Positions 5,367 to 22,493 are shown, counted from the first letter of the stretch. The stretch: DNA of 39,932 nucleotides from Acidimicrobiaceae bacterium (GCA_025463965.1 JAODBN010000394.1:1-39932), one strand, 5' to 3'. A program made the numbers and translations. The notes: a model not told the origin generated them from the sequence alone.

Positions 5367-6532
5367 GCCCGACCACCGGCGGCATCCCGGTCCTCGAGGA
5401 CCTCCCTCCGCTCTCCGGCAAGAAGGTCCTGCTGCGGGCCGACTACAACGTGCCCCTCGCCGAGGGGCGCGCCGGCGAGCGGGTGGTGGTGGACGACTTC
5501 CGCATCCGCGCCACCCTGCCGACGATCCAGTGGCTGCTCGCACAGGGCGCCGAGGTCACCGCCTGCACCCACCTCGGGCGGCCGAAGGGCGCTCCGGACC
5601 CCCGCTACGACGTCGCTCCGGTGCGGGCGCGCCTCGCCGAGCTCGCACCCGGGGTGTCGCTCGAGCAGAACCTGCGCTTCGACCCGGGCGAGGAGGCGAA
5701 CGACCCCGCCACCGTGCAGCGCCTGATCGCCGGATTCGACGCCTACGTGAACGACGCCTTCGGCGCCGCGCACCGGGCGCACGCATCGGTCGTCGGCCCG
5801 CCGAAGTTCCTGCCGTCCGCGGCGGGGCGTCTCCTCCAGCGCGAGGTCGAGGTGCTCGGCGGACTGCTCGGCTCGCCCGAGCGGCCCTTCATCGCGGTGG
5901 TGGGCGGTGCCAAGGTCGCCGACAAGCTGGCGGTGCTTCGCAGCCTGATCAAGAAGGTCGACACGGTGCTCGTCGGCGGGGGGATGAGCTACACGGTCCG
6001 CGCCGCGCTCGGGCACCCGATCGGTGCCTCCCTGTTCGACGCCTCCAAGGTCGAGGAGTGCCGCGAGCTGCTCGACGGGGACACCGAGATCCTGCTTCCC
6101 ACCGACATGGTGGCGCTGTCGCCCGACGGAAAGATCAACTTCGGGGGCCACCCCGAGCTCGAGGCGACCGGCTCCACGCGCGTCGTCGGGCGCGACGTCC
6201 CCGACGGCTGGGAGGCGATCGACATCGGCCCCGAGACCCGGGTCCGCTACCGAGAGCGCATCCTCAAGGCGCGCACGGTGCTGTGGAACGGGCCGATGGG
6301 CGCCTTCGAGGACGGCCGCTTCGGCGAGGGCACCCGCTCGGTTGCCGAGGCGGTGTCCGAATGCCCGGGCTTCACGGTGGTCGGCGGCGGCGACTCGGCC
6401 GCGGCGCTCGACAAGTTCAACATCGCAGGCGAGATCGACCACGTCTCCACCGGCGGTGGCGCCTCGCTGGAGTTCCTCGAAAAGGGCGACCTGCCCGGCC
6501 TGGCGGCACTGCGCGCCGGCCGGACCGGTTAG
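5363..6532 (+). CDS. pgk: Phosphoglycerate kinase
   Basis: GTG 5363 overlaps the gap TGA (GTGA). KKVLLRADYNVPL, WNGPMGAFE and VVGGGDSAAA motifs. This is the real part of the 743-aa ORF 4301..6532. Confidence 0.95.
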   Translation: MSPTTGGIPVLEDLPPLSGKKVLLRADYNVPLAEGRAGERVVVDDFRIRATLPTIQWLLAQGAEVTACTHLGRPKGAPDPRYDVAPVRARLAELAPGVSLEQNLRFDPGEEANDPATVQRLIAGFDAYVNDAFGAAHRAHASVVGPPKFLPSAAGRLLQREVEVLGGLLGSPERPFIAVVGGAKVADKLAVLRSLIKKVDTVLVGGGMSYTVRAALGHPIGASLFDASKVEECRELLDGDTEILLPTDMVALSPDGKINFGGHPELEATGSTRVVGRDVPDGWEAIDIGPETRVRYRERILKARTVLWNGPMGAFEDGRFGEGTRSVAEAVSECPGFTVVGGGDSAAALDKFNIAGEIDHVSTGGGASLEFLEKGDLPGLAALRAGRTG

Positions 6533-6542
6533 GGGCCCGGCC

Positions 6543-7322
6543 TTGGGAGGAGCCGAGCGGGGGATCCTGGTCAGCGGCAACTGGAAGATGAACGAGAACC
6601 ACTTCGAGGCGCTCAAGCTCATCCAGGAGCTGGCTGCCCTGCTGCGCAGCGGAGGCGTGCCCGAGGGACGCGAGGCGAGCGTGCATCCGCCGTTCACCTC
6701 CATCCGCACCGTGCAGACCGCCGTCGAGACCGACCACGTGCCGCTCTCGCTCGGCGCCCAGGACTGCCACCATGCCGATCGCGGCGCTTTCACCGGAGAG
6801 GTGAGCGCCGAGATGCTGGCCAAGCTGAACGTGGTCTACGTGATCGCCGGGCACTCCGAGCGTCGGACCTACTGCGGGGAGACCGACGAGCAGGTGCGCG
6901 CCAAGGTGGACGCCATCTACCGCAACGGCATGCGCCCGATCGTCTGTGTCGGCGAGCACCTGGCCGAGCGCCAGGCGGGCGAGGCCGTGGCAAAGGTGCG
7001 CAGCCAGGTCGCCGCGGTGTTCTCCGGGCGCTCCGCCGAGCAGGTCGCCGCTGCGGTCGTCGCCTACGAGCCGGTGTGGGCGATCGGGACGGGGGAGAGC
7101 GCCACCCCCGAGGACGCCGAGACGATGTGCGCGGAGATCCGGGCCGAGCTCGTGGCCCAGGCCGGCGCCCAGGCGGGCTCGGCGCGTGTGCAGTACGGAG
7201 GATCGGTAGGGCCCGACAGCGCCGGCGAGCTTCTGGCGCAGGAGAACGTCGACGGCCTCCTCGTCGGGGGAGCGAGCCTCGACGCAGGAAAGTTCGTGGC
7301 GATCCTCCACGCCGGGGCCTGA
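6543..7322 (+). CDS. tpiA: Triose-phosphate isomerase
   Basis: TTG 6543 in the frame of ORF 6024..7322. SGNWKMN, IAGHSERR and AYEPVWAIGTG motifs. Confidence 0.92.
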   Translation: MGGAERGILVSGNWKMNENHFEALKLIQELAALLRSGGVPEGREASVHPPFTSIRTVQTAVETDHVPLSLGAQDCHHADRGAFTGEVSAEMLAKLNVVYVIAGHSERRTYCGETDEQVRAKVDAIYRNGMRPIVCVGEHLAERQAGEAVAKVRSQVAAVFSGRSAEQVAAAVVAYEPVWAIGTGESATPEDAETMCAEIRAELVAQAGAQAGSARVQYGGSVGPDSAGELLAQENVDGLLVGGASLDAGKFVAILHAGA

Positions 7323-7481
7323 GACCCCAGCACCCGAGGCATAGCGCTAGAGGCATGCACCCGAGCCGCAGCAGACGGGCCACGGCGCTTGATCCGAAGG
7401 GGACGGGGCGGTCGGCGCTTCGCCGAATGGTCCTCAGGTGCCGCAGCTTTGCCGCCAGGCCCGACTGCTAGCCTGCTCAGC

Positions 7482-7712
7482 GTGCTGACGGACGTGCTTG
7501 TCGGGGTCGAGGTTCTCTGTAGCTTCGCCCTGATTCTCTTGATCCTGCTCCACTCGGGGCGAGGCGGCGGTCTTTCGGACATGTTCGGATCGTCGGTCGG
7601 ATCGGCCGCCGCGGGTTCCACCGTGGCCGAGAAGAACCTGGACCGCCTGACGGTGACGGTCGCGGTGCTGTTCGCCTTCAGCACCGTGATCATCGGCCTG
7701 CGGTGGGGCTGA
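7482..7712 (+). CDS. secG: Preprotein translocase subunit SecG
   Basis: GTG 7482 within ORF 7389..7712. A ~76-aa two-TM protein with LLHSGRGGGLSDMFG, the typical SecG loop. It sits directly after tpiA, as in many Gram-positive genomes. Confidence 0.8.
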   Translation: MLTDVLVGVEVLCSFALILLILLHSGRGGGLSDMFGSSVGSAAAGSTVAEKNLDRLTVTVAVLFAFSTVIIGLRWG

Positions 7713-9625
7713 GGCCCCGCTCCCTCCTCGCGCTCGGCTCGCTCACCCTCGCCGGGACCGTCGCGCTCGCCGGCGCCGCCGTCGCCGGATCCCGCACACC
7801 CCCCACGAAGCGCTCCGGCACGACCTCGACGTCGAGCACCACGACGACGTCGCCCGGTGGCTCGACCACCACGACTGTCCCCTCGGGGCCGATCAAGCTG
7901 AAAAAGGGCGGGACCGTCGTCGTCGCGGTCCCGAGCCTGCCCACCCAGTTCAACCCCAGCACGCCGGCGGGATCCAACGCCGCGACGGCGATGGTCACCG
8001 CGCAGATCTGGCCCTCTCCGTTCGTGGTCGGCCCGAACAACGCCGAGCTGCCGTCGGTCGAGCTCGACTCGGCGGAGCTCGTCGGGGTCAAGCCCGAGAC
8101 GGTCGTCTACACGATCAACAAGGCGGCGGTGTGGTCCGACGGGGTGCCGATCAGCGCGGCGGACTTCATCGAGCAGTGGCACGAGGAGCTCGCCGTCGGC
8201 GCACAGCTCCCGGCCAACACGCCGGTCGCCGGATACCGCGACATCGCCTCGATGAAGAGCTCGTCCAAGGGCAAGGTGGTGACGGTCGTGTTCACCAAGC
8301 CCTACGCGGACTGGGAGGCCCTGTTCTCCGGTCTCATGCCGGCGCACGTCGTCGCCCGCTACGGGTGGGAAAGCGCCTTCGCCGGCGCCGATCCGGCGCA
8401 CCTCGTGTCGGGCGGCCCCTACGAGGTGACCGCCGTCGTGCCCGGCAAGGAGGTCGTGCTCGGTCGCAACCCGCACTATTGGGGCCAGTCCCCGACGCTC
8501 GATCGCATCGTGTTCCTGGTGGTCCATGGTGCGTCGAAGATCATCGCCGGGCTCCAGCACGGCCAGATCCAGGTGGCGGCGCTCGCGCCGAGCCGCACCC
8601 TCGACGAGGCCATCTGGGGCGTCAACACGCTCGGTGACGAGGTCGTCCAGTCCCCGATGCAGTGGCAGCTCGACTTCAACCTGAACGACCCGACACTCTC
8701 CTCGCTGGTGCTTCGCCAGGCGCTCGTCGAGGCGATCAGCCGCACCGAGCTCGCCGCGGACTCGGTCGACTTCGAGAACGGGAACAACCCGCTGTCGGGC
8801 AACCGGCTCTTCACCATCGGGGCGCCTGGCAGCCAAGGCAACGCCGGCGGCTATCCCGCCGTGGACGACACCCTCTCCGCCAAGGTGCTCGCTCTCGCTG
8901 GCTACCGCCTCGGACCCGACGGGCTCGTGCACCGAAGCGACGGCACCGCGCTCGTGCTCCAGCTGGTGGGGCCCACCGGGAGCCTCCTCGTGCGCCAGGT
9001 CGAACAGCAGCTCCAGGCCCAGTTCCAAGACGTCGGGGTGACCCTCCAGGTGAAGAACGTCCCGGCGGGCGAGCTCCTCTCGAGCACGCTTCCCTCCGGC
9101 GCCTACCAGCTGGCGCTGGCGCCCTATCTGCTCTCCCCCTATCCGGCGGAGAACGCCTCGTTCTACGAGAGCCCGGTGGCTCCCGTTGCCTCCACCCCCT
9201 TCGAGGCGAAGAGCTCAAGCTCGGGCGTGGAGACGGCCACCCTGCTCAAGCCGTTGGCGCCGGGCTCGGGAACCGAGCCTTCGGCGGTCCAGGCGGGGAC
9301 GGTGACCCGGGACGTCACCGGCTATCAGGACCCCGCGGTATCGGCGCTGTTCGACCAGGCCGAGCAGCAGCTCAACCCGCTCTCGATGGAGAGCCTCTAC
9401 AACCAGGCCGACTCCCAGCTCTGGCTGGACCTTCCGACCCTGCCGCTGTTCCAGGTCCCCGTCGAGCTCGTGAAGTCGAACCTTTTGGTGAACGTGCATG
9501 AGTCCTCGACGCTGGCCGGCCCGCTGTACAACGCGCAGAACTGGGCGATCCAGCTCCCGCCACCACCGACCACCACGACGACGACATCCACGACGACGAG
9601 CACGACGCTCGCCAAGAAGGGATAG
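7703..9625 (+). CDS. ABC transporter substrate-binding protein, family 5 (peptide/nickel type), with Thr/Ser-rich N- and C-terminal linkers
   Basis: ORF 7703..9625. Hydrophobic signal/anchor (LLALGSLTLAGTVALAGAAVAG, no lipobox Cys), a poly-Thr/Ser tract, then a ~550-aa domain resembling SBP_bac_5 proteins. The C-terminus is PPPPTTTTTTSTTTSTT. The family call comes from overall sequence character, not a search. Confidence 0.7.
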   Translation: MGLRPRSLLALGSLTLAGTVALAGAAVAGSRTPPTKRSGTTSTSSTTTTSPGGSTTTTVPSGPIKLKKGGTVVVAVPSLPTQFNPSTPAGSNAATAMVTAQIWPSPFVVGPNNAELPSVELDSAELVGVKPETVVYTINKAAVWSDGVPISAADFIEQWHEELAVGAQLPANTPVAGYRDIASMKSSSKGKVVTVVFTKPYADWEALFSGLMPAHVVARYGWESAFAGADPAHLVSGGPYEVTAVVPGKEVVLGRNPHYWGQSPTLDRIVFLVVHGASKIIAGLQHGQIQVAALAPSRTLDEAIWGVNTLGDEVVQSPMQWQLDFNLNDPTLSSLVLRQALVEAISRTELAADSVDFENGNNPLSGNRLFTIGAPGSQGNAGGYPAVDDTLSAKVLALAGYRLGPDGLVHRSDGTALVLQLVGPTGSLLVRQVEQQLQAQFQDVGVTLQVKNVPAGELLSSTLPSGAYQLALAPYLLSPYPAENASFYESPVAPVASTPFEAKSSSSGVETATLLKPLAPGSGTEPSAVQAGTVTRDVTGYQDPAVSALFDQAEQQLNPLSMESLYNQADSQLWLDLPTLPLFQVPVELVKSNLLVNVHESSTLAGPLYNAQNWAIQLPPPPTTTTTTSTTTSTTLAKKG

Positions 9626-9776: not shown

Positions 9777-9860
9777 GTCGGAGTGGCGGAATAGGTAGAC
9801 GCGCTAGCTTGAGGGGCTAGTGCCCGAAAGGGCGTGGGGGTTCAAGTCCCCCCTCCGACA
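9777..9860 (+). tRNA. tRNA-Leu (anticodon GAG), class II with long variable arm; CCA not encoded
   Basis: Acceptor GTCGGAG (9777-9783) pairs with CTCCGAC (9853-9859); discriminator A at 9860. Anticodon stem CTAGC/GCTAG with loop TTGAGGG gives anticodon GAG. Long variable arm TGCCCGAAAGGGCG. T-arm GGGGG-TTCAAGT-CCCCC. Confidence 0.9.
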
Positions 9861-9861
9861 C
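9843..9861 (+). repeat. attL-like direct repeat (CAAGTCCCCCCTCCGACAC), inside the tRNA-Leu 3' end
   Basis: This exact 19-mer recurs at 15125..15143. Confidence 0.85.
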
Positions 9862-9869
9862 GAATGTCC

Positions 9870-9904
9870 TGTCGCGAGACAGCGTTCACACCTGTCTCGC
9901 GACA
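9870..9904. repeat. 13-bp inverted repeat (TGTCGCGAGACAG / CTGTCTCGCGACA, 9-nt spacer) beside attL; probable IS end or terminator
   Basis: Read directly from the sequence. GTTCACAC is also directly repeated at 9884-9891 and 9907-9914. The repeat lies just 3' of the transposase-fragment stop (minus strand). Confidence 0.6.
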
Positions 9905-9908
9905 CAGT

Positions 9909-10181
9909 TCACACCACCAGCGGTTGATAGTCACGCGAGAGGTCAAGCGCCAGCTCGCGTAGGCATTCGCCGTCCTCGGTGATCACCCGGACGTGCAGAT
10001 CGTGGACGAGCAGGATCACCCGCTGTCCCGCGAACGCCCTTCCGATGTCAATGTGGTGAAGCTGGCTGCCCACACGCAGCGTCACCTTGCCCGTCGTCCC
10101 GACGACATCGCGCCGGGTTCGGAAGTGACTGATCGGGATCGGTTCGTCTGACGGCTGCGCCGCAAAGGCTTTGGCTAAGAC
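9909..10181 (-). pseudogene. C-terminal fragment (~90 codons) of an IS481-family (DDE, rve-type) transposase
   Basis: Manual minus-strand translation: ...AQPSDEPIPISHFRTRRDVVGTTGKVTLRVGSQLHHIDIGRAFAGQRVILLVHDLHVRVITEDGECLRELALDLSRDYQPLVV*. This matches from memory the conserved C-terminal tail of actinobacterial IS481-type transposases (...GxVTLRxxGRLHHIGIGRxxAGxxVxLLVxDLxVRVIxxxTGELLRELTLDPxRDYQP). There is no start codon, and an in-frame TAG lies at 10182-10184. Confidence 0.6.
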
Positions 10182-10202
10182 CTACCCGCCGTTGCTCACG
10201 AA

Positions 10203-11954
10203 CTAGGAATCGCCGCCTTCCGCCCCACCTGACTGGGTGGATTCGGACTCGGTTTCCGGCGGCTGGCTTTCTGGGAGCGGCCCTCCGGACTCGACAACCT
10301 TGTTGCCTTCGAAGCTGACCCGGACGCGGCCGCCGGAGAGCTGCTCCACGCCGAGGATGCGGGCATCGGCGCATCGAAGCAAGCAGGAGCCAACGAGGAC
10401 TTCGTTGCCGCCATTGGACACGGTAAGTGGTTCGGTGCGCTGGAAGCCGCCGTCGCCCTCGATGCACTCGCGCAGTGCAGGAAGCTCCTCCTCGCTCCCC
10501 TCGGACGCCCCCGTCCAGTGCTCCTCGAATTCGTAGGTCTCCCCGCGAAGTAGCGCGATGGCGCGGCGCACTGACTGCCGTTCTTCATCAGATTCCGGGA
10601 ATACGAGCGGCGTTGTCGTGAACTTCTGCAACTGCTCCAGAAGGTCGAGGTGCCAGAGCCCGGACTCCCAGTTCGATAATGGCGGCTCACCCAACGGCAG
10701 TTCGGCCTGCGTCATCACGTTGAATGTGCTGCGCAGTCGGAATCTCAGCAAGTGAGGTCGCCGGATGTTCGCCACCAGTCGGTACCCGGGGCCGACAGTC
10801 GCGACGGGAGCGCCGGGAACGCGCTCGAGCTGCAGCGAATACTCGAGCCTCAGTCGGCCATGGACCGGGAATTCCAGTCGAAGCTCAAGATGAAGGTGTC
10901 CTGTTGACTCCGAGGCGCGCAGCTCCAGACCCTTCTGCCCCTTGCTGAGCGTTGCGATTGGGAGGAGTGCTGAGCCGATCGCCGTCCCGTCTTCTGCGAT
11001 GACTTCGATGTCAGCCCACAGAGGAATGTCGGGCTGCGTTGCAGGCGCGTGGACTTGGATCTGCCAAGCGCTCCTCTCGCTTGTTGAACCAAGGCCACCG
11101 GGAACGTTGAACGCGACGGCGTGGACAGCCTCTGGAGGGATTTCGAAGGCAGTCCCGTAGTCCTGATGGGCCTGGAATGCGTCGCGCAGGTCTACCCCCG
11201 CTTCCTGGTCGAGCACCGCGAACGTGAAGTTCCCGCCGATGGGACGGTCGAGGACTGCCTGAGGGAATCTCGCGTAGACGTCGACGGTCACAAAGGACCC
11301 GTTCTCGACCGGCATCGTGGTGGTCATCACCGCCTGTGGATCCACTGATGGGCGCGCTGACGTGACGCGTAGGTCGTAGCGGTAGTACGGGTCGGTGCGG
11401 TTGAGCTCCTGATGCAGATCGCCAAGGGATGTGACCACATCGACCGGCCGCACGGGGTCTGTTGGTCGTCCGAGTAGTTGTGCGAGGGTGCGAACCTTCG
11501 CCTCGAGTTCCGCCTTGCCGTTCTCGAGGAAGTAGCTAATGACGAACCAGTATTTGGAGGCCTCCGAGTGCCAGAACGTGAGGCCACGCCAGTCGCAGGC
11601 AAAGCCTGCATCGGCCGTCAGCTCGTTGAACCACTCGTCGTCTCCACTCGTCGGGTTGAGGGGGATCACGAGTGACCACTGAACGACTGGTCCATCGAGC
11701 CTCGGGTTGATCTTCACCCGCTCGAGCGACTCGGCGATCTTGGCCTTGTCGTTCGCCGATAGTGACTCAGTGAACCGCTTGATCTGGAAGACGTGATAGT
11801 CGCCTGCGACCGGTTCGTAGACGTCCACACCGCCGTCACCCTGCGACGGGCGGCGATGTTGGGCAGTGGGCCGCTCCTGGAGGAGGAGCACCGCCATCAC
11901 ATCCTCGATGAGCTCACCTGGATAGCTGCCCCAGTGCACAGGACCGACTGTCAT
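10203..11954 (-). CDS. Mrr-type PD-(D/E)xK restriction-endonuclease-like domain fused to a ~430-aa uncharacterised C-terminal region
   Basis: ORF 10203..11954 (583 aa). The N-terminus ELIEDVMAVLLL...SQGDGGVDVYEP...YHVFQIKRF mirrors the Mrr_cat pattern (FE..v..LL...GDGGIDG...IQAKRW). No P-loop or other recognisable motif in the rest. Acidic Ser/Glu-rich C-terminal tail. Confidence 0.65.
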   Translation of the reverse strand: MTVGPVHWGSYPGELIEDVMAVLLLQERPTAQHRRPSQGDGGVDVYEPVAGDYHVFQIKRFTESLSANDKAKIAESLERVKINPRLDGPVVQWSLVIPLNPTSGDDEWFNELTADAGFACDWRGLTFWHSEASKYWFVISYFLENGKAELEAKVRTLAQLLGRPTDPVRPVDVVTSLGDLHQELNRTDPYYRYDLRVTSARPSVDPQAVMTTTMPVENGSFVTVDVYARFPQAVLDRPIGGNFTFAVLDQEAGVDLRDAFQAHQDYGTAFEIPPEAVHAVAFNVPGGLGSTSERSAWQIQVHAPATQPDIPLWADIEVIAEDGTAIGSALLPIATLSKGQKGLELRASESTGHLHLELRLEFPVHGRLRLEYSLQLERVPGAPVATVGPGYRLVANIRRPHLLRFRLRSTFNVMTQAELPLGEPPLSNWESGLWHLDLLEQLQKFTTTPLVFPESDEERQSVRRAIALLRGETYEFEEHWTGASEGSEEELPALRECIEGDGGFQRTEPLTVSNGGNEVLVGSCLLRCADARILGVEQLSGGRVRVSFEGNKVVESGGPLPESQPPETESESTQSGGAEGGDS

Positions 11955-12020
11955 AGGGACAAGGATGCCCGAGCGGTGAGACAGTCGGCAGGTGCTTCAC
12001 GATGACGAAGGGCGGCGGCG

Positions 12021-12725
12021 ATGGCCTACTGGACCAACTCGGAAGTGTTGGAGGCAGTCAACCAGGAGATTGAAGCCCACACCGCCGCGTGGGTGTTAGA
12101 AGAGCAGCCCATTGGGTGGGACGAGGTTCGATGGCGCAAGTCATGGTCCAAGTACGAGATGCCTGCCGACGCCCCAATCCTCGACGCTCTTGCCCTCGAG
12201 CTGGTGCAGTACGGGCTCATCCGTCGCAGCTTCGTCTTTGCTCACGCCCACGAGGACCCGACCGACCTCGTTACGGCCGTCATGGCTTGGGGTTCGGGCG
12301 ACGAGGACAACCGCGGTGCCTGGCGGGCCGCCGAGGCAATTGGTGGCCCCGTAGACGATGTCTTCGCAGACGTGACGGCGGCACTCGGCCAAGGGCAGGG
12401 CGCAATCACGGAAGCGTTCCGGGCCCTTTTCCACAACGGACAAGCCCGGCTACCTCGCTGCAACGTGTCCTACGGGACGAAGGTCCTGCACTTCTTCGCT
12501 TACCAGGGCCAAGTACGACCTCGGCCGCTGATTTACGACCTGCGTGTGGCGAACGCCCTCGCACGCATGCCCTCCGCTCCTTACGTTCCCCACCAGGGCA
12601 GTGTCATCCGGGGCGACCAGTACGAGCGGTACTGCTCCTGGGCTGAGGCCTACGCCGAGGACAAGAAGACTGAGCCGATAGTCGTCGAATACGCGCTGTT
12701 CGCGGTTGGAGGACGATTGACCTGA
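12021..12725 (+). CDS. OGG-fold (HhH-GPD superfamily) DNA-glycosylase-like protein
   Basis: ORF 12021..12725 (234 aa). The segment LPRCNVSYGTKVLHFFAYQGQVRPRPLIYDLRVANAL parallels hOGG1 [30 protein letters not shown]. The GTK lysine (K154, nt 12480-12482) and an Asp exactly 19 residues later (D173, nt 12537-12539) match the K249/D268 spacing. The upstream MAWGSGDEDNRGAWR resembles the WG.G..G.GP.R signature of proteins annotated as '8-oxoguanine DNA glycosylase OGG fold protein'. Confidence 0.6.
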   Translation: MAYWTNSEVLEAVNQEIEAHTAAWVLEEQPIGWDEVRWRKSWSKYEMPADAPILDALALELVQYGLIRRSFVFAHAHEDPTDLVTAVMAWGSGDEDNRGAWRAAEAIGGPVDDVFADVTAALGQGQGAITEAFRALFHNGQARLPRCNVSYGTKVLHFFAYQGQVRPRPLIYDLRVANALARMPSAPYVPHQGSVIRGDQYERYCSWAEAYAEDKKTEPIVVEYALFAVGGRLT

Positions 12726-12762
12726 CCAGGCCCCGTGACACCCCTCTGGCATCCTCGTACTC

Positions 12763-13815
12763 GTGGATGCACGGTGGGATGCCGCCAAGACGGTCTGGGG
12801 CGCCGTCCTCGGCCCGGTCGTCAAGGGCACGCTGCCCTACAACGACCTCCGGCAACGGCGTCAGGTACGGCGCGAGACTCGACGCCTGATCACGTGTGAA
12901 CCCTGGCGGGGGAACGATGCAACACCTATCCAGCTTGCGCAGCTTGCCCTCGCGCGCTCGTTGGCCCTGCAGACGAACACACGCCGCGCAGTACGTCATG
13001 GCGAAGCGGTAGCGCTGCTGGCCAGATCTGCGCTCGAGACCTGCTTCGTCGGCCTCTATTGCCTCTATGGCGATGACCCCCTGACCGCGATGCGCGGTGG
13101 TAACGCCAAGGCGCTGCGCAGGATGCTCGTGAACCTAGGGCACGAGGACATCATCACCGAAGACGTCCTGAAGGCGATCGAGGCGGACATAGGGGGTGAC
13201 GGCAAGCTCCCCGACGCACGGAAGATGGCGGAATCCATCTCGGCTGGACTCAACGACGCCCCGTTCCCGCTCAACCTCTACTGGCGGGTGTACGTGCCCC
13301 TGTCGGAGTTCTTCGCCCACGCGAATGGGATGTCGCTGATGCGCCACGTAGGCGACAAGGGAGTGCTCCTTGAAAAGGCGGCGTACCCTTGGGCTCGCTG
13401 GTCAGCCGTCCATACAGCAGATGGCTGTGTTGGGCTTCTCGCCGCCGCGATCGCGCACAAGGACGGGCACCCCAACGAACTATTCGGCAGCTACGCCGAT
13501 CACCATCTGCTGCGGTCACTCGCTCCACTGGCAGTTGTGAGCGGCAAGGGCATGTTCCGATCGCTCGGACCGCGACGACTGTTGGCGCTTGTCAAGGGTG
13601 TCGTGGACCTGCGCGCCTACAAGGCTTCCGGTCGCGCCGAGGCCGACAGCTTCGATGACCGGGTGGCATATCTCCGCTCTTGGTTCGAGCGTCACGTCGG
13701 CAACTTCGACGACATCTCCGAGGAGATCTGGGATATCTACGTCGAGCGGGTCGTGACAGTGCTCGCCACGAACGAGCCGGCTTCGGACCCCCCGTCTCCA
13801 GGAACATCCGCTTAG
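12763..13815 (+). CDS. Hypothetical protein (predicted mostly helical), co-directional partner of the OGG-fold gene
   Basis: ORF 12763..13815 (350 aa). The GTG start lies 38 nt after the upstream stop. No family is confidently recognised. There is a weak resemblance to DUF5677/AbiV-like helical proteins (LLARSALETCFVGLYCLYGDDP; YVPLSEFFAHANGMSL) and an R-x4-H string (RRAVRH). Coding status is supported by length and an island-typical context only. Confidence 0.5.
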   Translation: MDARWDAAKTVWGAVLGPVVKGTLPYNDLRQRRQVRRETRRLITCEPWRGNDATPIQLAQLALARSLALQTNTRRAVRHGEAVALLARSALETCFVGLYCLYGDDPLTAMRGGNAKALRRMLVNLGHEDIITEDVLKAIEADIGGDGKLPDARKMAESISAGLNDAPFPLNLYWRVYVPLSEFFAHANGMSLMRHVGDKGVLLEKAAYPWARWSAVHTADGCVGLLAAAIAHKDGHPNELFGSYADHHLLRSLAPLAVVSGKGMFRSLGPRRLLALVKGVVDLRAYKASGRAEADSFDDRVAYLRSWFERHVGNFDDISEEIWDIYVERVVTVLATNEPASDPPSPGTSA

Positions 13816-13979
13816 GTCTGCGCCAATGTCCGCTCGGTGACCAGAGCTGGGCAGCTCACGGCGAGCCGCCTTTGACACCTGGCTCGAGCAAGTGGCCAGA
13901 CCAAGTAGCGCCTGCGGCTGCGCCTCGAACCCAGGCGCTGAGCTGGGTAACAACGGCTCTCTGGTGCCGGCTTTACCAC

Positions 13980-15044
13980 CTAGGTCGGGTCCGGGAAATC
14001 GGCCCAGTTGATTTGATGACCTCCAGGCGACATCGGGTGCGGCTCGTCAGGGTGCTCGGCCGCGTACTCCGCCATCACCTTCAGGCGGTGCTGAAGCCGT
14101 CGGACGTGGGCGGTCTCGTACGTCACCGACTGCGGCATCGGGAGCGATGCTCTGGGCCCCAGGAGCTCGGCGAGCGAGTCGTCAGGATGGTGATAGAGCC
14201 AGCGCGTGGCGTTCTCCGCCATCATCCGGCTAACCGCCCGCGCACTCGTCGTCGTCCCGTGGATCTCCCGGCCGTTGGGCACGTCCCAGTCTGGGTCGAC
14301 CCGGTTCCTGAGTAGGAGACAGCACGAGCGAGAGACCGGGAAATAGATGACCTGGGCGTTTGCCATGCCCACGCCGTAGATCTGCGGCATCTCGGGATTC
14401 GCAGCGAGGATTATCGGCGAGTCTGAAGTGAGGAGATGCCGGCGATCCCACCGCATGACGTGCCAGCTGTAGGTCATGGTGAACGGCTCCAAGAACTCGT
14501 CGAGCAACTTGAACGAGTCGACTAGGTGAGCTTCGCTCTGGCGCGAGACGTTCCAGTTGAGGTCCCCCACCGAAACCCAGGCCTCGGTCACCTCCTCTTC
14601 GGTCGGCGGACGTCCCAGGTGGTTCTCGAGGGACCTCCGCATCCCCATAGGTCCTTCGGCCGCGACAGTCAGCTTCATAAGGAGGTCGGCGAGTGCGTCC
14701 CCCTCGTCCCTACGGGTCGGGACTCGCAGCAGTTGGAATAGCACGAGCCGGGCAACGACCTCTAGTTCGTCCTCCTCCATCCATCCACCGCGGGCGATGC
14801 GAGCAATCACTGCACCGGCGGGTCCCTCGACACGGTTGGCGATGGCGACCTCCGCCTCATCCGAGAGGCTCCCGTTCTTGAGCTCGATGGTGTTGTAGTC
14901 GTTTTCGGCCGCAGCGTCGTCGATCGACCGCGGGAACGACCTGCCGTCCGCCCGGAGGTCGACCACTTGGATGACGCCAACCTTGGCGAACTCCCGAAGG
15001 ACGAGCTTCGACACGAAGTGGTGGCGGACTCGTCGCTCGGCCAT
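13980..15044 (-). CDS. DUF4238 family protein
   Basis: ORF 13980..15044 (354 aa). The N-terminal RHHFVSKLVLREFA matches the hallmark HY(V/I)PQFYL(K/R)xF opening of DUF4238. Size is typical of that family, which includes a single-gene anti-phage system (Rst_DUF4238). Confidence 0.6.
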   Translation of the reverse strand: MAERRVRHHFVSKLVLREFAKVGVIQVVDLRADGRSFPRSIDDAAAENDYNTIELKNGSLSDEAEVAIANRVEGPAGAVIARIARGGWMEEDELEVVARLVLFQLLRVPTRRDEGDALADLLMKLTVAAEGPMGMRRSLENHLGRPPTEEEVTEAWVSVGDLNWNVSRQSEAHLVDSFKLLDEFLEPFTMTYSWHVMRWDRRHLLTSDSPIILAANPEMPQIYGVGMANAQVIYFPVSRSCCLLLRNRVDPDWDVPNGREIHGTTTSARAVSRMMAENATRWLYHHPDDSLAELLGPRASLPMPQSVTYETAHVRRLQHRLKVMAEYAAEHPDEPHPMSPGGHQINWADFPDPT

Positions 15045-15124: not shown

Positions 15125-15143
15125 CAAGTCCCCCCTCCGACAC
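15125..15143 (+). repeat. attR-like direct repeat = displaced original 3' end of tRNA-Leu (followed by CCA)
   Basis: CAAGTCCCCCCTCCGACAC is identical to 9843..9861. Here it continues ...ACACCA, an encoded CCA, whereas the functional tRNA copy continues ...ACACGA. Confidence 0.85.
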
Positions 15144-15149
15144 CATATA

Positions 15150-15182
15150 AAGCCCAGCTCAACGAGCTGGGCTTCTTGATTT
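15150..15182 (+). terminator. Rho-independent terminator-like hairpin (probable original tRNA-Leu terminator)
   Basis: AGCCCAGCTC (15151-15160) pairs perfectly with GAGCTGGGCT (15164-15173), followed by TCTTGATTT. It sits 7 nt after the displaced tRNA end. Confidence 0.65.
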
Positions 15183-15216
15183 GCCAACGCAAAGTCATCC
15201 CTCCGGCCACCGTCTT

Positions 15217-15249
15217 GGACACGAGGTGGACACGAGGTGGACACGACAC
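15217..15249 (+). repeat. Tandem 11-bp repeat GGACACGAGGT x2 plus a degenerate third copy (GGACACGACAC); a further GGACAC at 15255
   Basis: Read directly from the sequence. Lies immediately upstream of the integrase remnant. Confidence 0.7.
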
Positions 15250-15264
15250 CTCACGGACACCGTC

Positions 15265-15900
15265 CGGGCACGGAGGAGCTGTGGAGCGTGGGCGAGAACG
15301 TCGCGCGGCCGGGGGGCGGCTACTACCGACTCGAGCTCTCCCGGGCCTGGCGGTCGGCGACGCCAGAAATGGGTCGGCGCGTTCGAGGCCGAGCACAACG
15401 CCAGGGCGCCCTCGCCGCCGTCCAGGTGGACGTGTCCCCCGGGAAGGAGGCGGCGCGCACCTTCGCTGACCTCACCGAGGAGTGGCTGGAGGTCGTCGGG
15501 TCGTGACGGAGACTGGACCGACTCTCGAGTGCCCAGATCCAGCGTTTGTACGTCGCGCACAGCGCTCGTGGAGCGCCCGCGGGACGACTCGAGGGAGCGG
15601 CCGGTCTACTCGCCGGACCAAGTGCGACGCTTCCTCGGGGCAGTGGGCAGCGACCGGTTGCGCGCCCTGTGGCAACTCGTCCCTTACCACGAGGGCTCCG
15701 CCGAGAAGAACTCGCCCGGACTGCGCTGGAGAGACCTCGACCCCGCGGCGTCGCCGCCGCTGCTGACCGTCCGGTCCACCCGCACCACTGCCGGCAACAA
15801 AGTTGTTGAGGGCGATCCGTAGACGCGTTCGGGGCGTCGCACCCTGGTGCTGATGGCCAGAACACGGCGCTGTTGCAGTGATCCCCTGAGCGTGCCTGAC
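15265..15900 (+). pseudogene. Tyrosine recombinase (phage-type integrase) pseudogene: multiple frameshifts, one in-frame TAG, catalytic C-terminal domain missing
   Basis: Integrase-like pieces are spread over three frames: GAVERGRERRAAGG / GGYYRLELSRAWRS / KWVGAFEAEHNAR / VDVSPGKEAARTFADLTEEWLEVV / RPVYSPDQVRRFLGAVGSDRLRALWQLV / GLRWRDLDPAASPPLLTVRSTRTTAGNKVVEGDP-TAG(15820-15822)-TRSGRRTLVL. The R..H..RH..Y catalytic region was not found downstream. The 3' limit is approximate. Confidence 0.6.
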
Positions 15901-19233: not shown

Positions 19234-20628
19234 TGGGAAAAGCAATTCATCGAGCAGTTTCCTGAGTGCGCCCGGCCGCTCGAGGACCAGCTTCTCGACG
19301 TCTGGCCGGTCTCGCTCAAGCGCCTCCGATCGGGACACGGTACGCGCCTTTCTGGCGTCGTCGCCTCGCCGAGGAGCAGCGATGAGGCGGCGGTCATCAT
19401 TCGGTGGTCAGCTCGCCATGAGGTACCCGTCGTCCCACGAGGCGGTGGCTCCTCGGTGACGGGCAGCCCGCTGCCATCGGCCGGGTTCGTGCTGCTCGAC
19501 ACCCGTAGCCTGAATCGGATCGTCGACATTGACGCCGTGGACGGCCTCGTCCACGTCCAAGCCGGCGTCCTCGGTAGCGACCTCGAAGAGGCGTTACAGG
19601 CCGAAGGGCTGACGACGTGGTTCTCGCCGCAGTCGCTCGACCGGTCGACGGTCGGCGGCTGGGTCGCGACGAGGGCGAGCGGACAGTTCTCGTCGCGCTG
19701 GGGTGGGATCGAGGACGCGGTCGTCTGCCTCACCGTCGTGCTGGCGAACGGCGCGATCGTCCGAGTCGGCACGCCGCCCCGAGGTGCAGTGGGCCCCGAC
19801 CTACGGTCGCTGTTCATCGGCAGCGAGGGCGCCTTAGGCGTCATTACGGAGGTCACGTTGCGGGTCTATCCGCTGAGCCCGGTGGCGTTGTCGACGTTCG
19901 CGCTGAAGGACATTCCCTCGGGCCTTGAGGTGATCCGTCGGCTCATGCAGTCAGGTGTGAGTCCTGCCCTACTGCGGCTCTACGACAAGGACGAGGCGTA
20001 CCACCTACAAGCGCCATCACCGGGTTCCGCTCCGATTCTCATCGCCGGCTTCGCCGGTCAGGAGGAGATCGCTGCCGCCGAGCAGCGTGTCGCTCGACGG
20101 TTGCTCGTCGACGCAGAGGCAGAAGACCTCGGTCCGGATGCCGCTGAGGCGTGGTTCAAGAACCGCTATGACTTCTCGCGTCTCGAGGCGCTCCTGGACA
20201 AGCCAGGGGGCTACGCGGAGACGATCGAAGTCGCCTTCGGCTGGCGTCGGGCGCACGGCTCCTACCTCGAGCTGAAGGAGGCACTCCGACCCCGCTCGGA
20301 TGAGGTGCTCGGCCACTTCTCGCATGCGTACAGCGACGGGATCTCCTGCTACCTCATCGCCACCGGTGAGCTCGACACCGACCCTGCGGCGCTCGAGCGG
20401 CTCGAGCAAATCTGGCGGGTGACGATGGAGACGGCGCTTGCATGTGGGGCGGTCATCTCGCACCATCACGGGGTGGGGACGGCCCGACTGCCGTACCTGG
20501 CCCGCCAGCTCGGTGGCGGCTACGACATCCTCACGACGCTGAAGCACGCGTTGGACCCTCGACAGCTCTGCCACCCGGGCAGCCTCGTCGACCCGGAAGG
20601 CCAAGGTAAACCGCCATGCGGACTGTGA
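19225..20628 (+). CDS. FAD-binding oxidoreductase (FAD_binding_4 / GlcD-, alkyl-DHAP-synthase-like)
   Basis: ORF 19225..20628. VVASPRSSDEAAVIIRWSARHEVPVVPRGGGSSVTG is the PCMH-type FAD-binding signature. C-terminal HHHGVG motif. Confidence 0.8.
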   Translation: MSTWEKQFIEQFPECARPLEDQLLDVWPVSLKRLRSGHGTRLSGVVASPRSSDEAAVIIRWSARHEVPVVPRGGGSSVTGSPLPSAGFVLLDTRSLNRIVDIDAVDGLVHVQAGVLGSDLEEALQAEGLTTWFSPQSLDRSTVGGWVATRASGQFSSRWGGIEDAVVCLTVVLANGAIVRVGTPPRGAVGPDLRSLFIGSEGALGVITEVTLRVYPLSPVALSTFALKDIPSGLEVIRRLMQSGVSPALLRLYDKDEAYHLQAPSPGSAPILIAGFAGQEEIAAAEQRVARRLLVDAEAEDLGPDAAEAWFKNRYDFSRLEALLDKPGGYAETIEVAFGWRRAHGSYLELKEALRPRSDEVLGHFSHAYSDGISCYLIATGELDTDPAALERLEQIWRVTMETALACGAVISHHHGVGTARLPYLARQLGGGYDILTTLKHALDPRQLCHPGSLVDPEGQGKPPCGL

Positions 20629-22493
20629 CCAGAGAACACGTCCTTCACCGGCTGCGCATGGCAACCGATAGCGGACGCGCCCTGCTCGCCTGTGGCGCAG
20701 CCAACGGACTCGTCGCCGCGGCGGCCGAGGCGGGTGGCGCCGACCTCATCGTCGTCTACAGCTCGGGCAAGTTCCGGGCGGCGGGGCGCAGCTCACTCAG
20801 TGCGCTGATGCCGTATGGCAATGCCAACGAGATCGTCCTCGCCATGCTGCCCGAGATCCGAACTGCGCTCGGCGACTGCCCCGTCGTCGCGGCGCTATGC
20901 GGTACCGACCCGACGACCTCGCTCGAGGCGCTTGTCAGGGCGGCGGCAGAGCGCGGTGCGAGCGGCGTGCAGAACTTCCCGACGATCGGTATGTTCGGCC
21001 ACGAATTCCGAGAGGATCTGGAAGCGACCGGCATCTCGTTCGAGCAGGAGATCGAGTTGCTCCGAGCGGCGCGTCGAGCGGATCTCCTCACCTGCGGCTA
21101 CGTCACCAACGAAGAGGACGCAGCTGCGATGGCACTGGCGGGCGTCGACGTGATCGTTCCCCTCCTCGGCGTGACGCGATACCGGAACGGCGACGACGCT
21201 GTCGCGGACGCGGCGGCTCGCATTTCGGCGCTGGCGGACGCAGCGCTCGCTGTTCGCGACGACCTGCTGCTCCTGTTCCACGGCGGACCGGTTGCAGAGC
21301 CGTCCCAGGTGCAACGCTGCTTGAAGCTGGTCCCCGCTCTTCATGGGTATATCGCGGCATCCTCGGTCGAGCGCACGCCGGTGGCCCGTGCCGTTTCCGC
21401 GGCGGCGCGGGCCTTTGTCGAGGTGCGTCGCGCTGCAGGCGAGCATCCCATTGCCGAGGCGTCGCCCGACTTCAGCACGCCGCCGCCGGACCTCCCGCTC
21501 GAGCTGACCGCGGACACCCTCGCGGAGTACCTGGCGAAGAAGGGAATTGTCGCAGCGGCTGACAACGTCGAGGTGGACGAGCTCAGTGGCGGCCTCTCGA
21601 ACGTCGTGCTGAGGTGGCGTTCCAGTGGGCAGTCGGGCGTGATCAAGCAGTCGAGACCGAGGTTGCGGGTCGCCGAGGAATGGCGCGCCGACGTCCGGCG
21701 CATCGTGAACGAGTACGAAGCCATCAGCTACCTTGCCCCCCGAGTTCACCGCGGTCGCCTGCCGACGATCACTTTCACGGACCCGACGCTGCTCGCGTTC
21801 GGAATGGAGGAGGTTTCCGCCGACGCACGGCTCTGGAAACCGGAGCTGCTTGCCGGCACCATCCACGAGGAGCGCGCGCAACAGGCGGGAGCCTTGCTCG
21901 CCGACATCCACAATGCGACTCGAGACGAGCCGACCTTGCGACGGCGCTTCCTCGCCGAGCCGCTGCTGACGCAGAATCGACTGGACCCGTGGTACCGGGC
22001 GGCCGCTCGTTGCCACCCCGACCTCGCCGCATCCTTCGAGTACGCGATCTCCCGGCTGCTCGAGGTGAAACAGGTCCTCGTGCACGGTGACTTCGTGCCG
22101 AAGAACCTCTTCCTGCTCGAGGGAGAGCTCTTTGTCGTCGACTTCGAAGTCACGCACTTCGGCAATCCGGGCTATGACGTCGCGACGTTTGTCAACCACA
22201 TGATGCTGAAGGGGTTCGCATTGCCCGAGCACCGTCAGGCCTTCGGCCGGTTGGCCTCGACCATGTGGGAGAGCTACCGCAACCTCTGGGACGGCGACCA
22301 GGCCGTGGTCCAACAGGAAGCGCTCGTACAGCTGGGCGCGCTCATGCTCGCCCGCGTCGACGGAAAGTCCAAAGTCGAATACCTCGCAGGCACAGAGCAC
22401 GCCGCCGAGGCACGTGACTTCGGGCGGTGGCTGCTGCGGAACCGCCCGGCATCCGTCGGTGAAGTACTCACTCGCTACGCCGGTCATCTCTAG
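20616..22493 (+). CDS. Fusion protein: N-terminal phosphoenolpyruvate-hydrolase-like TIM barrel (PF09370-like) + C-terminal APH/methylthioribose-kinase-like kinase domain
   Basis: ORF 20616..22493 (625 aa) overlaps the upstream gene by 13 nt. N-terminus: GAANGLVAAAAEAGGADLIVVYSSGKFRAAGRSSLSALMPYGNANEIV...GVQNFPTIG...HGGP. C-terminus: ELSGGLSNVVLRW...VLVHGDFVPKNLFL...VVDFEVTHFGNPGYDVA (Brenner HGD and DFE motifs). Confidence 0.75.
   Translation: MRTVTREHVLHRLRMATDSGRALLACGAANGLVAAAAEAGGADLIVVYSSGKFRAAGRSSLSALMPYGNANEIVLAMLPEIRTALGDCPVVAALCGTDPTTSLEALVRAAAERGASGVQNFPTIGMFGHEFREDLEATGISFEQEIELLRAARRADLLTCGYVTNEEDAAAMALAGVDVIVPLLGVTRYRNGDDAVADAAARISALADAALAVRDDLLLLFHGGPVAEPSQVQRCLKLVPALHGYIAASSVERTPVARAVSAAARAFVEVRRAAGEHPIAEASPDFSTPPPDLPLELTADTLAEYLAKKGIVAAADNVEVDELSGGLSNVVLRWRSSGQSGVIKQSRPRLRVAEEWRADVRRIVNEYEAISYLAPRVHRGRLPTITFTDPTLLAFGMEEVSADARLWKPELLAGTIHEERAQQAGALLADIHNATRDEPTLRRRFLAEPLLTQNRLDPWYRAAARCHPDLAASFEYAISRLLEVKQVLVHGDFVPKNLFLLEGELFVVDFEVTHFGNPGYDVATFVNHMMLKGFALPEHRQAFGRLASTMWESYRNLWDGDQAVVQQEALVQLGALMLARVDGKSKVEYLAGTEHAAEARDFGRWLLRNRPASVGEVLTRYAGHL

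Follow-up and report, generated by a model that had tools for sequence, protein, structure and literature searches.

Glycosylases from the helix-hairpin-helix (HhH) superfamily have been described as anti-phage genes by Getz et al. (bioRxiv 10.1101/2025.10.29.685425), who reported 17 such families in Vibrio integrons, Dag1 and 16 others, that protect against phages with 7-deazaguanine DNA. These proteins, Dag1-17, excise the modified guanine of the phages; Dag1 degrades modified DNA in vitro, requires K118, D184 and W188, and appears to be bifunctional. Some 45% of Dag homologues have defence or mobile-element markers nearby, and homologues are rare in Actinomycetota, with 136 listed in Table S5 of the same study. 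Here we describe an OGG-like gene from an Acidimicrobiaceae bacterium (GCA_025463965.1, JAODBN010000394.1:1-39932), which encodes a 234 aa protein and lies on a small mobile islet; the whole stretch analysed, 39,932 nt, is referred to as the window. Compared by description, Dag1-17 are probably the closest match to the OGG-like protein in mode of action: both are encoded by single small genes, combine an HhH-superfamily fold (a probable one in the OGG-like protein) with an active site of Lys, Asp and an aromatic residue, and occur in mobile elements and where the GC content is unusual, although the active-site layout of the OGG-like protein differs from that of Dag1.

The Pfam family to which the OGG-like protein belongs, PF21790, is already tied to defence by the END nucleases. 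The domain at the C-terminus of END-PaCF1 and END-Mag matches PF21790 by HHpred, sets which hypermodified phages are restricted and has been described as catalytically inactive (Yee et al., PMC12191111). In those proteins it is joined to a PLD, PD-DExK or McrB module, whereas the OGG-like protein consists of the domain alone and keeps the active-site Asp. [quoted passage not shown] A first-pass annotation of the window, made from the sequence alone, had suggested that a defence glycosylase of the HhH-GPD/OGG fold would be new. Dag1-17 and the PF21790-like sensor domains of the END proteins were both reported in 2025, and defence by HhH-fold glycosylases is no longer a novelty.

Among repair enzymes the likeness, a divergent one, is to the archaeal-type Ogg2 group of 8-oxoguanine (8-oxoG) DNA glycosylase/AP lyases (PF22175; MjOgg, PDB 3FHF and 3KNT; SsOgg, 3FHG; TmOgg, 3N0U). 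Ogg2 and the OGG-like protein are alike in being all-alpha proteins of about 200-230 aa that have no OGG1 A-domain; the HhH hairpin, the helix, the loop and the Asp motif are colinear, and both have the catalytic Asp, a Tyr (Y172 in Ogg2), an acidic pocket residue (D194 in Ogg2, E223 here) and a stacking aromatic residue (W198 and F227, respectively). They differ in that the OGG-like family has Ser or Ala in place of the Schiff-base Lys and an invariant Lys four residues further on, where Ogg2 has an invariant His. In addition, a 5-residue RPRP insertion stands ahead of the Asp in the OGG-like protein, the C-terminal Lys that senses 8-oxoG is absent, the N-terminal halves cannot be aligned, and the genomic context is one of mobile and defence genes rather than of housekeeping genes.

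Family membership and conservation

The open reading frame (ORF) of the OGG-like gene has a third-position GC content of 0.76, which fits a genuine gene in DNA of ~65-70% GC. Residues 27-227 of the product match PF21790 ('Putative 8-oxoguanine DNA glycosylase OGG-like protein') at E=5.5e-32 and 111.5 bits against a cut-off of 27, the match covering model positions 4-201 of 201, and 99 of 99 aligned relatives match the same family. There is no nuclease or McrB fusion of the kind seen in the END nucleases. A word-indexed search recovered 19 relatives at 30-70% identity, all of them PF21790 proteins of about 230-250 aa, and a profile search against 1.84 billion representatives recovered 2,028 clusters (50% identity) at E<=1e-3 and 817 at 1e-10. 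The majority of the best 150 of the 2,028 clusters are stand-alone proteins of 200-250 aa, and Actinomycetota account for the bulk of the stand-alone PF21790 matches in genomes. Fusions are rare: those examined among the best 150 clusters were P0053 (SIR2_2, 706 aa), P0071 (a weak HEPN match, 447 aa) and P0061 (314 aa, with a MazG-like pyrophosphohydrolase at the N-terminus). The conserved Lys and Asp described below are retained in the SIR2 and MazG fusions, and both motifs are also visible in the HEPN-fusion sequence.

Conservation was counted in a hidden Markov model (HMM) alignment of 169 family sequences, in which about 140-150 residues were scored per column. K154 is Lys in 150/151 relatives and D173 is Asp in 147/148; the other conserved positions are R69 (138/141), W90 (145/151), G91 (147/151), Y201 (144/144), E223 (140/141) and F227 (130/140). 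All of these except F227 reach at least 96% conservation, and the window protein retains every invariant residue of its family. The first-pass annotation had drawn attention to the string YGTKVLHFFAYQGQVRPRPLIYDLRV, which begins at residue 151, for its Lys and Asp 19 residues apart. The 234 aa ORF, the YGTK...YD string, K154, D173 and the spacing are all real and go beyond a chance match, and the near-invariance of both residues is the opposite of the lack of conservation that the annotation had named as refuting its reading.

Fold and relationship to Ogg2

An AlphaFold2 (AF2) model built from 18 sequences had a predicted local distance difference test score (pLDDT) of 87, and one built from 99 sequences had a pLDDT of 95.7 and a predicted template modelling score (pTM) of 0.92 and was all-alpha, with 13 helices. 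HhH-GPD glycosylases head the lists of Foldseek matches in the PDB for both models (five of the top 8 in one list and three of the top 4 in the other, at E 0.36-0.8); these are TmOgg 3N0U, MagIII 1PU7, DrEndoIII-3 4UOB/8A5G, MjOgg 3KNT, Mag2 4HSB and MutY 6Q0C, so that Ogg2 structures rank among the best matches. A search of BFVD gave no significant structural match.

For profile-profile comparison, 120 Ogg2 (PF22175) proteins were collected by a motif-based search, and an alignment of 90 of these sequences was used; the motif in MjOgg (K129, D147) was confirmed from the PDB. Aligned with hhalign, the 99-sequence OGG-like profile and the 90-sequence Ogg2 profile scored 26-27.6 (P=0.002-0.003) over 78 columns, spanning residues 143-227 of the query and 121-198 of SsOgg. 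By comparison, 100 column-shuffled templates scored 12.5 +/- 2.3 with a maximum of 20.4, and the reversed template scored 14.4. Alignment with a single E. coli Nth or hOGG1 sequence gave noise, with a probability of about 0.5%; when E. coli Nth was used as a database query, all relatives recovered were at least 86% identical and could not serve as a profile. Membership of an OGG-fold family, as originally proposed, thus agrees both with the PF21790 match and with a C-terminal half that aligns to Ogg2 well above the shuffled controls.

Active-site register

In the hhalign alignment S150 falls on SsOgg K128, the position of the Schiff-base Lys, T153 on S131, K154 on H132 (His133 in MjOgg) and D173 on the catalytic Asp, D146 (D147 in MjOgg). 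Further downstream, Y201, E223 and F227 align with Y172, D194 and W198, and for this reason the invariants of the two families coincide; these three Ogg2 residues are invariant or nearly so and lie outside the motif by which the Ogg2 sequences were collected. A gapless motif match to GLGVAFGTKLLYFAGY likewise sets the canonical Lys position at Ser150. In both AF2 models the helix formed by residues 149-160 begins directly after the hairpin position, and D173 caps the N-terminus of helix 174-180, past the RPRP loop. The canonical Lys column of the OGG-like family contains 95 Ala, 45 Ser, 4 Gly and 0 Lys among 149 residues, and the family consensus after the hairpin is a helix followed by RPRP-L-I-Y-D. 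On the alignments and models, D173 is the catalytic-position Asp of the HhH-GPD fold and K154 probably lies one helical turn beyond the position of K249 in hOGG1 and K129 in MjOgg (Table 1).

The hOGG1-like geometry of Lys and Asp claimed in the first-pass annotation is not supported: D173 does fall on the catalytic Asp, but the canonical Lys position is Ser150 by all three lines of evidence, the hhalign register, the gapless motif match and the AF2 helices. Because these lines agree, the match of 'GTK' to 'GVGTK' in hOGG1 is most likely a coincidence of register. The spacing between K249 and D268 in hOGG1, which we take to be 19 residues, is that between K154 and D173. Counted along K249-V-A-D-C253, K154 occupies the position of hOGG1 Cys253.

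A Lys at this position has an experimental precedent. The lesion pocket of hOGG1 is lined by both Lys249 and Cys253 (PMC3397491), and a mutant in which the two are swapped handles 8-oxoG like the wild type (Dalhus et al. 2011, via PMC3397491); because the swap mutant works, a Lys four residues beyond the canonical position is compatible with activity. In the same work monofunctional excision was assigned to Asp268 and base alignment to Lys249 (PMC3397491). The remaining pocket residues can be read against MjOgg, in which Trp198 stacks on 8-oxoG and Asp194 corresponds structurally to Gln315 of hOGG1, a residue that forms a hydrogen bond with N1 of the base (PMC3397491). In Ogg2 the N7-H of 8-oxoG is read by a C-terminal Lys that is strictly conserved and uses its carboxylate for the purpose (PMC3397491). 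The tail after Trp198 was 9 residues long in 83/90 Ogg2 sequences, and 89/90 ended in Lys. OGG-like tails ranged from 4 to >20 residues, with a terminal Lys in 4/99, and the window protein ends in ...GGRLT. Judged from these alignments, the fixed C-terminal Lys sensor of Ogg2 is missing from the OGG-like family.

Homologue neighbourhoods and distribution

We examined 33 homologue loci and tallied 146 neighbouring genes from 29 of them. Base-excision-repair genes numbered 0 among the 146; the tally included resolvases, relaxases, transposases, BrxL, PD-T4-6 and mad6, and two neighbours scored as DruE by PADLOC. Recognised defence genes lay within three genes of the homologue in about a dozen of the 29 loci, and relaxases, resolvases and transposases accompanied others. 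The first-pass view that the gene keeps mobile and defence company rather than that of repair genes is thus borne out. Individual loci place the homologues beside TrwC relaxases and TIR-TPR genes (L024-L026), type IV secretion system (T4SS) and relaxase genes (L027), BrxL and PglZ of BREX (L029, L030), a module of helicase, DUF1156 methylase and HEPN-DUF499 (L005), an OLD-type ATPase-TOPRIM gene (L019), a STAND-TPR gene (L018), a Ser/Thr kinase (L012) and, on a Gordonia plasmid, AbiE with a large methyltransferase (L033). In Mycolicibacterium vanbaalenii (L008), an 828-aa gene of the type IV restriction family GmrSD_N (5422-8615) is the immediate upstream neighbour of the OGG-like gene, on the same strand and perhaps overlapping it, and a 1,544-aa gene (9933-14567) lies downstream.

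The distribution is patchy. A 70%-identical homologue was found in four different neighbourhoods, with an MFS transporter, a GerE regulator and transposases. By tblastn the family was found on 6 Gordonia plasmids, 5 of them mobilizable, and in one case a MOBF plasmid carries the OGG-like gene near a large orphan DNA methyltransferase; phage-borne copies numbered 0 in 50,697 phage records.

No neighbour family recurred beyond 2-4 loci on clustering, and the 583-aa, 350-aa and DUF4238 genes that accompany the OGG-like gene in the window were found by tblastn and clustering beside no other homologue among ~30 loci. Because these three genes do not recur, a 'split END nuclease', in which the OGG-like protein would work with a conserved partner gene, was rejected as the main model. 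By these comparisons the OGG-like protein would act as a single-gene system with no obligate partner. A 583-aa gene that follows the homologue in L025 (6247-7998) equals the window's 583-aa gene in length and shows no detectable similarity to it; as a candidate conserved partner it was set aside as a coincidence of length.

Proposed function and alternative explanations

From the family membership, the residue conservation, the Ogg2 register, the attachment-site (att)-bounded islet, the neighbourhoods and the lack of a conserved partner we infer catalysis, a substrate and a defence phenotype for the OGG-like protein. We put at about an even chance the combined proposal that its ancestry lies in the Ogg2 branch of the HhH-GPD glycosylases and that its gene encodes a stand-alone, mobile glycosylase serving as a single-gene defence against invading DNA with a modified base. 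In such an enzyme the HhH region would grip the DNA backbone while the base is flipped into the pocket, where F227 would stack on it like Trp198 of MjOgg and E223 would read the Watson-Crick edge of a guanine-like base, in the manner of Asp194 in Ogg2 and Gln315 in hOGG1. Y201 and K154, the latter at the Cys253 position, would further line the pocket, and Asp173, N-capping the helix that follows the Pro-rich loop, would catalyse hydrolysis of the glycosidic bond. The invader would then be destroyed by host apurinic/apyrimidinic (AP) endonucleases, or its replication stalled at the abasic sites, as with Brig1 and Dag1.

The enzyme would probably be monofunctional, because Ser150 stands in for the canonical Schiff-base Lys, and its substrate is probably a base other than 8-oxoG, because the C-terminal Lys sensor of Ogg2 is missing. 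An Ogg-type purine pocket, the catalytic Asp, a relocated Lys and the loss of the 8-oxoG sensor together make it plausible that the family consists of active glycosylases whose target is guanine-like but not 8-oxoG; our best guess is a base of the 7-deazaguanine type. Modified G is known from actinophages, for example as dPreQ0 at about 28% of the G of the Mycobacterium phage Rosebush (PMC6884629). More tentatively, at rather less than an even chance, the stand-alone PF21790 proteins as a group may be active defence glycosylases distinct from Dag1-17, with a naturally 'swapped' Ogg layout, in which a small residue fills the Schiff-base position and the Lys lies one helical turn on, in the base pocket, and with a target base of actinophages such as dPreQ0.

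Several results weigh against a defence glycosylase. The Foldseek matches in the PDB reached best E values of 0.36-0.46 and template modelling (TM) scores of 0.29-0.39, so that nothing was significant. Neither phmmer with the single protein nor hmmsearch with the 99-sequence profile found a glycosylase or other relevant chain in the PDB, and the Pfam HhH-GPD model (PF00730) gave not even a weak match in any of the 99 family members. The hhalign probability for the Ogg2 comparison was just 10-13%, and the confident alignment is restricted to residues 143-227, the N-terminal half not being aligned with confidence. In the window protein the glycines of the hairpin are replaced by R146 and N148, and the canonical catalytic Lys is absent. 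No model of NCBIfam, PHROGs or PADLOC matches the protein, the PADLOC result bearing on its role in defence. The proposed substrate is a guess, and the enzymatic activity of stand-alone PF21790 proteins is a prediction. The fusions to SIR2 or HEPN fit a sensor as well as they fit an enzyme, and the PF21790-like C-terminal domain of END-PaCF1 is reported to be an inactive sensor (PMC12191111).

The last two points, with the missing canonical Lys, are also the case for the main alternative, an unlikely one, in which the OGG-like protein, like the inactivated EndoIII/Ogg domain of the END nucleases, is a non-catalytic sensor of modified or damaged bases and its effector acts in trans, for example the 583-aa nuclease-like protein of the window or the GmrSD-type enzyme of L008. 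A nuclease-like gene does adjoin the OGG-like gene in the window, the GmrSD_N gene of L008 lies directly upstream on the same strand, and there are effector fusions, to SIR2_2 and, weakly, to HEPN. Against this stand the lack of a conserved partner, since neither the 583-aa nor the 350-aa gene is present at the ~30 homologous loci and the plasmid sets are disjoint, and the fact that most family members stand alone. An Asp in the catalytic position in 147/148 relatives would not be needed by a pure binder, although it could be a structural helix cap.

We consider it improbable that mobile elements carry the protein as a glycosylase for repair or maintenance, clearing oxidised, alkylated or other damaged bases from element or host DNA with no part in conflict. 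An origin among Ogg2 repair enzymes, the names used by Pfam and NCBI, and the resemblance of E223 and F227 to a guanine-lesion pocket would all suit such a role, but the 146 neighbours at 29 loci comprise mobile-element and defence genes and no repair genes, the 8-oxoG sensor of Ogg2 (a 9-residue tail with terminal Lys) is lost, and the genes are scattered over islands and plasmids in contexts that differ even at 70% identity. Slightly more improbable, in our estimate, is a benefit to the mobile element itself, through plasmid or integrative and conjugative element (ICE) establishment, anti-restriction or competition between elements, for instance by stripping modifications added by a host or rival. 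TrwC/MOBF relaxases and T4SS genes adjoin the homologues in L024, L025 and L027, and MOBF Gordonia plasmids carry the gene, once near the orphan methyltransferase. However, homologues lie equally often inside chromosomal defence clusters (BREX, Druantia, OLD, STAND), the islet carries a DUF4238 defence gene and no transfer genes, and plasmids carry defence genes too, so that a plasmid location cannot discriminate.

Should the defence glycosylase be confirmed, it would extend glycosylase-based immunity to Actinomycetota such as mycobacteria, Gordonia and relatives of Streptomyces, hosts for which modified-DNA phages are known and phage therapy is under development, and the family would supply a small reagent for reading a modified purine. 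If the more tentative view of the stand-alone PF21790 proteins holds, no glycosylase-type defence would have been described for Actinobacteria before them, and they would be nature's parallel to the engineered hOGG1 K249C/C253K. The relocated Lys is a natural experiment on a debated question, whether the lysine of OGG enzymes acts as nucleophile or as base aligner only. Comparison of the stand-alone proteins, which keep the Asp, with the reportedly inactive END domains could reveal how a repair enzyme is turned into an immune effector or an immune sensor.

The islet and its surroundings

The first 9.6 kb of the window hold core genes (uvrC, a methyltransferase, rapZ, gap and a gene for a solute-binding protein) at a GC content of 0.70-0.74, which falls to about 0.62-0.65 at a tRNA-Leu gene. 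The 3' end of this gene recurs as an exact 19-nt direct repeat, for which 0 copies are expected by chance (100 shuffles). The two att copies enclose 5.28 kb with four genes in total, and the OGG-like gene is thus carried by an att-bounded mobile element (Table 1). No recognisable integrase lies inside the 5.28-kb islet, and the islet has no transfer genes. We do not count the uvrC gene, 10 kb off in the core region outside the islet, as a linked neighbour of the OGG-like gene. Scanning the islet for promoters and terminators gave no useful result.

Table 1. Features of the islet and of the OGG-like protein, with positions in the window.
Feature	Position	Strand	Remarks
tRNA-Leu (anticodon GAG)	9777..9861	+	ARAGORN; target of islet integration
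att repeat copy 1, CAAGTCCCCCCTCCGACAC	9843..9861	+	3' end of tRNA-Leu
Hairpin after att copy 1	9870-9904		13-bp perfect inverted repeat TGTCGCGAGACAG/CTGTCTCGCGACA
583-aa protein gene	10203..11954	-	Divergent from the OGG-like gene
OGG-like gene	12021..12725	+	234 aa
Residues 143-173	12447..12539	+	HhH hairpin to D173; hhalign register to SsOgg 121-146, DSSP of the models, column counts
Hairpin L144-P-R-C-N148			Degenerate; family consensus h-P-G-L-G, RCN replacing GLG
S150	12468-12470	+	Canonical Lys position, in helix 149-160
K154	12480-12482	+	In helix 149-160
D173	12537-12539	+	After the Pro-rich loop RPRP
Residues 201-227	12621..12701	+	Pocket helices at the C-terminus; Y201, E223 and F227 align with Y172, D194 and W198
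350-aa protein gene	12763..13815	+	37 nt downstream of the OGG-like gene, same strand
DUF4238 protein gene, 354 aa	13980..15044	-	PF14022 over its full length, E=1.3e-31
att repeat copy 2	15125..15143	+	Exact 19-nt direct repeat of copy 1; right end of the islet
Hairpin after att copy 2	15150-15174		11-bp stem, then T-run
Tandem repeat GGACACGAGGT	about 15217-15245		About 2.5 copies, just past att copy 2

The first-pass annotation had placed the OGG-like gene between a restriction-like nuclease gene and a DUF4238 gene. Both genes are real, but the 350-aa gene, which had gone unmentioned, separates the OGG-like gene from the latter. The 583-aa protein has no Pfam domain and only a weak PADLOC match to LmuA (0.021), and its N-terminal GDGGVDV...FQIKRF looks like the motif of an Mrr-type PD-(D/E)xK nuclease. 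Homologues occur on 11 actinobacterial plasmids, two being annotated 'restriction endonuclease' and one lying beside a MobF relaxase; an OGG-like gene is on 0 of these 11 plasmids. The 350-aa protein has only a weak match to DUF5677 (E=0.11, Pfam), and co-transcription of its gene with the OGG-like gene is possible. A DUF4238 protein has been described as a single-gene defence that confers strong T7 resistance in E. coli (Rousset et al., bioRxiv 10.1101/2021.01.21.427644); no model of PADLOC 2.0.0 matches the DUF4238 protein of the window.

A strong hairpin lies within about 10 nt after each att copy, and the two could be terminators or arms of the recombination sites. The tandem repeat may mark arm-type binding sites, and att copy 2 could double as the left end of a further element. 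Broken frames near the islet ends resemble a decayed N-terminal half of a tyrosine integrase (15181-15900, + strand; TFADLTEEWL, GLRWRDLD) and a C-terminal remnant of a transposase (9909-10085, - strand); neither impression had support from Pfam, plasmid tblastn or the PDB.

To the right of the islet, positions 16000-37000 have a GC content of 0.61-0.68, compared with 0.70-0.74 in the first 9 kb, and hold sugar-catabolism, ABC-transporter, PdxA, SMP-30, RraA-like, GntR and beta-lactamase-like genes; this may be a second, larger acquired region. At 20616-22493 (+ strand) within it, a single 625-aa ORF joins a PEP_hydrolase-like domain (PF09370) to an APH-type kinase domain (PF01636).

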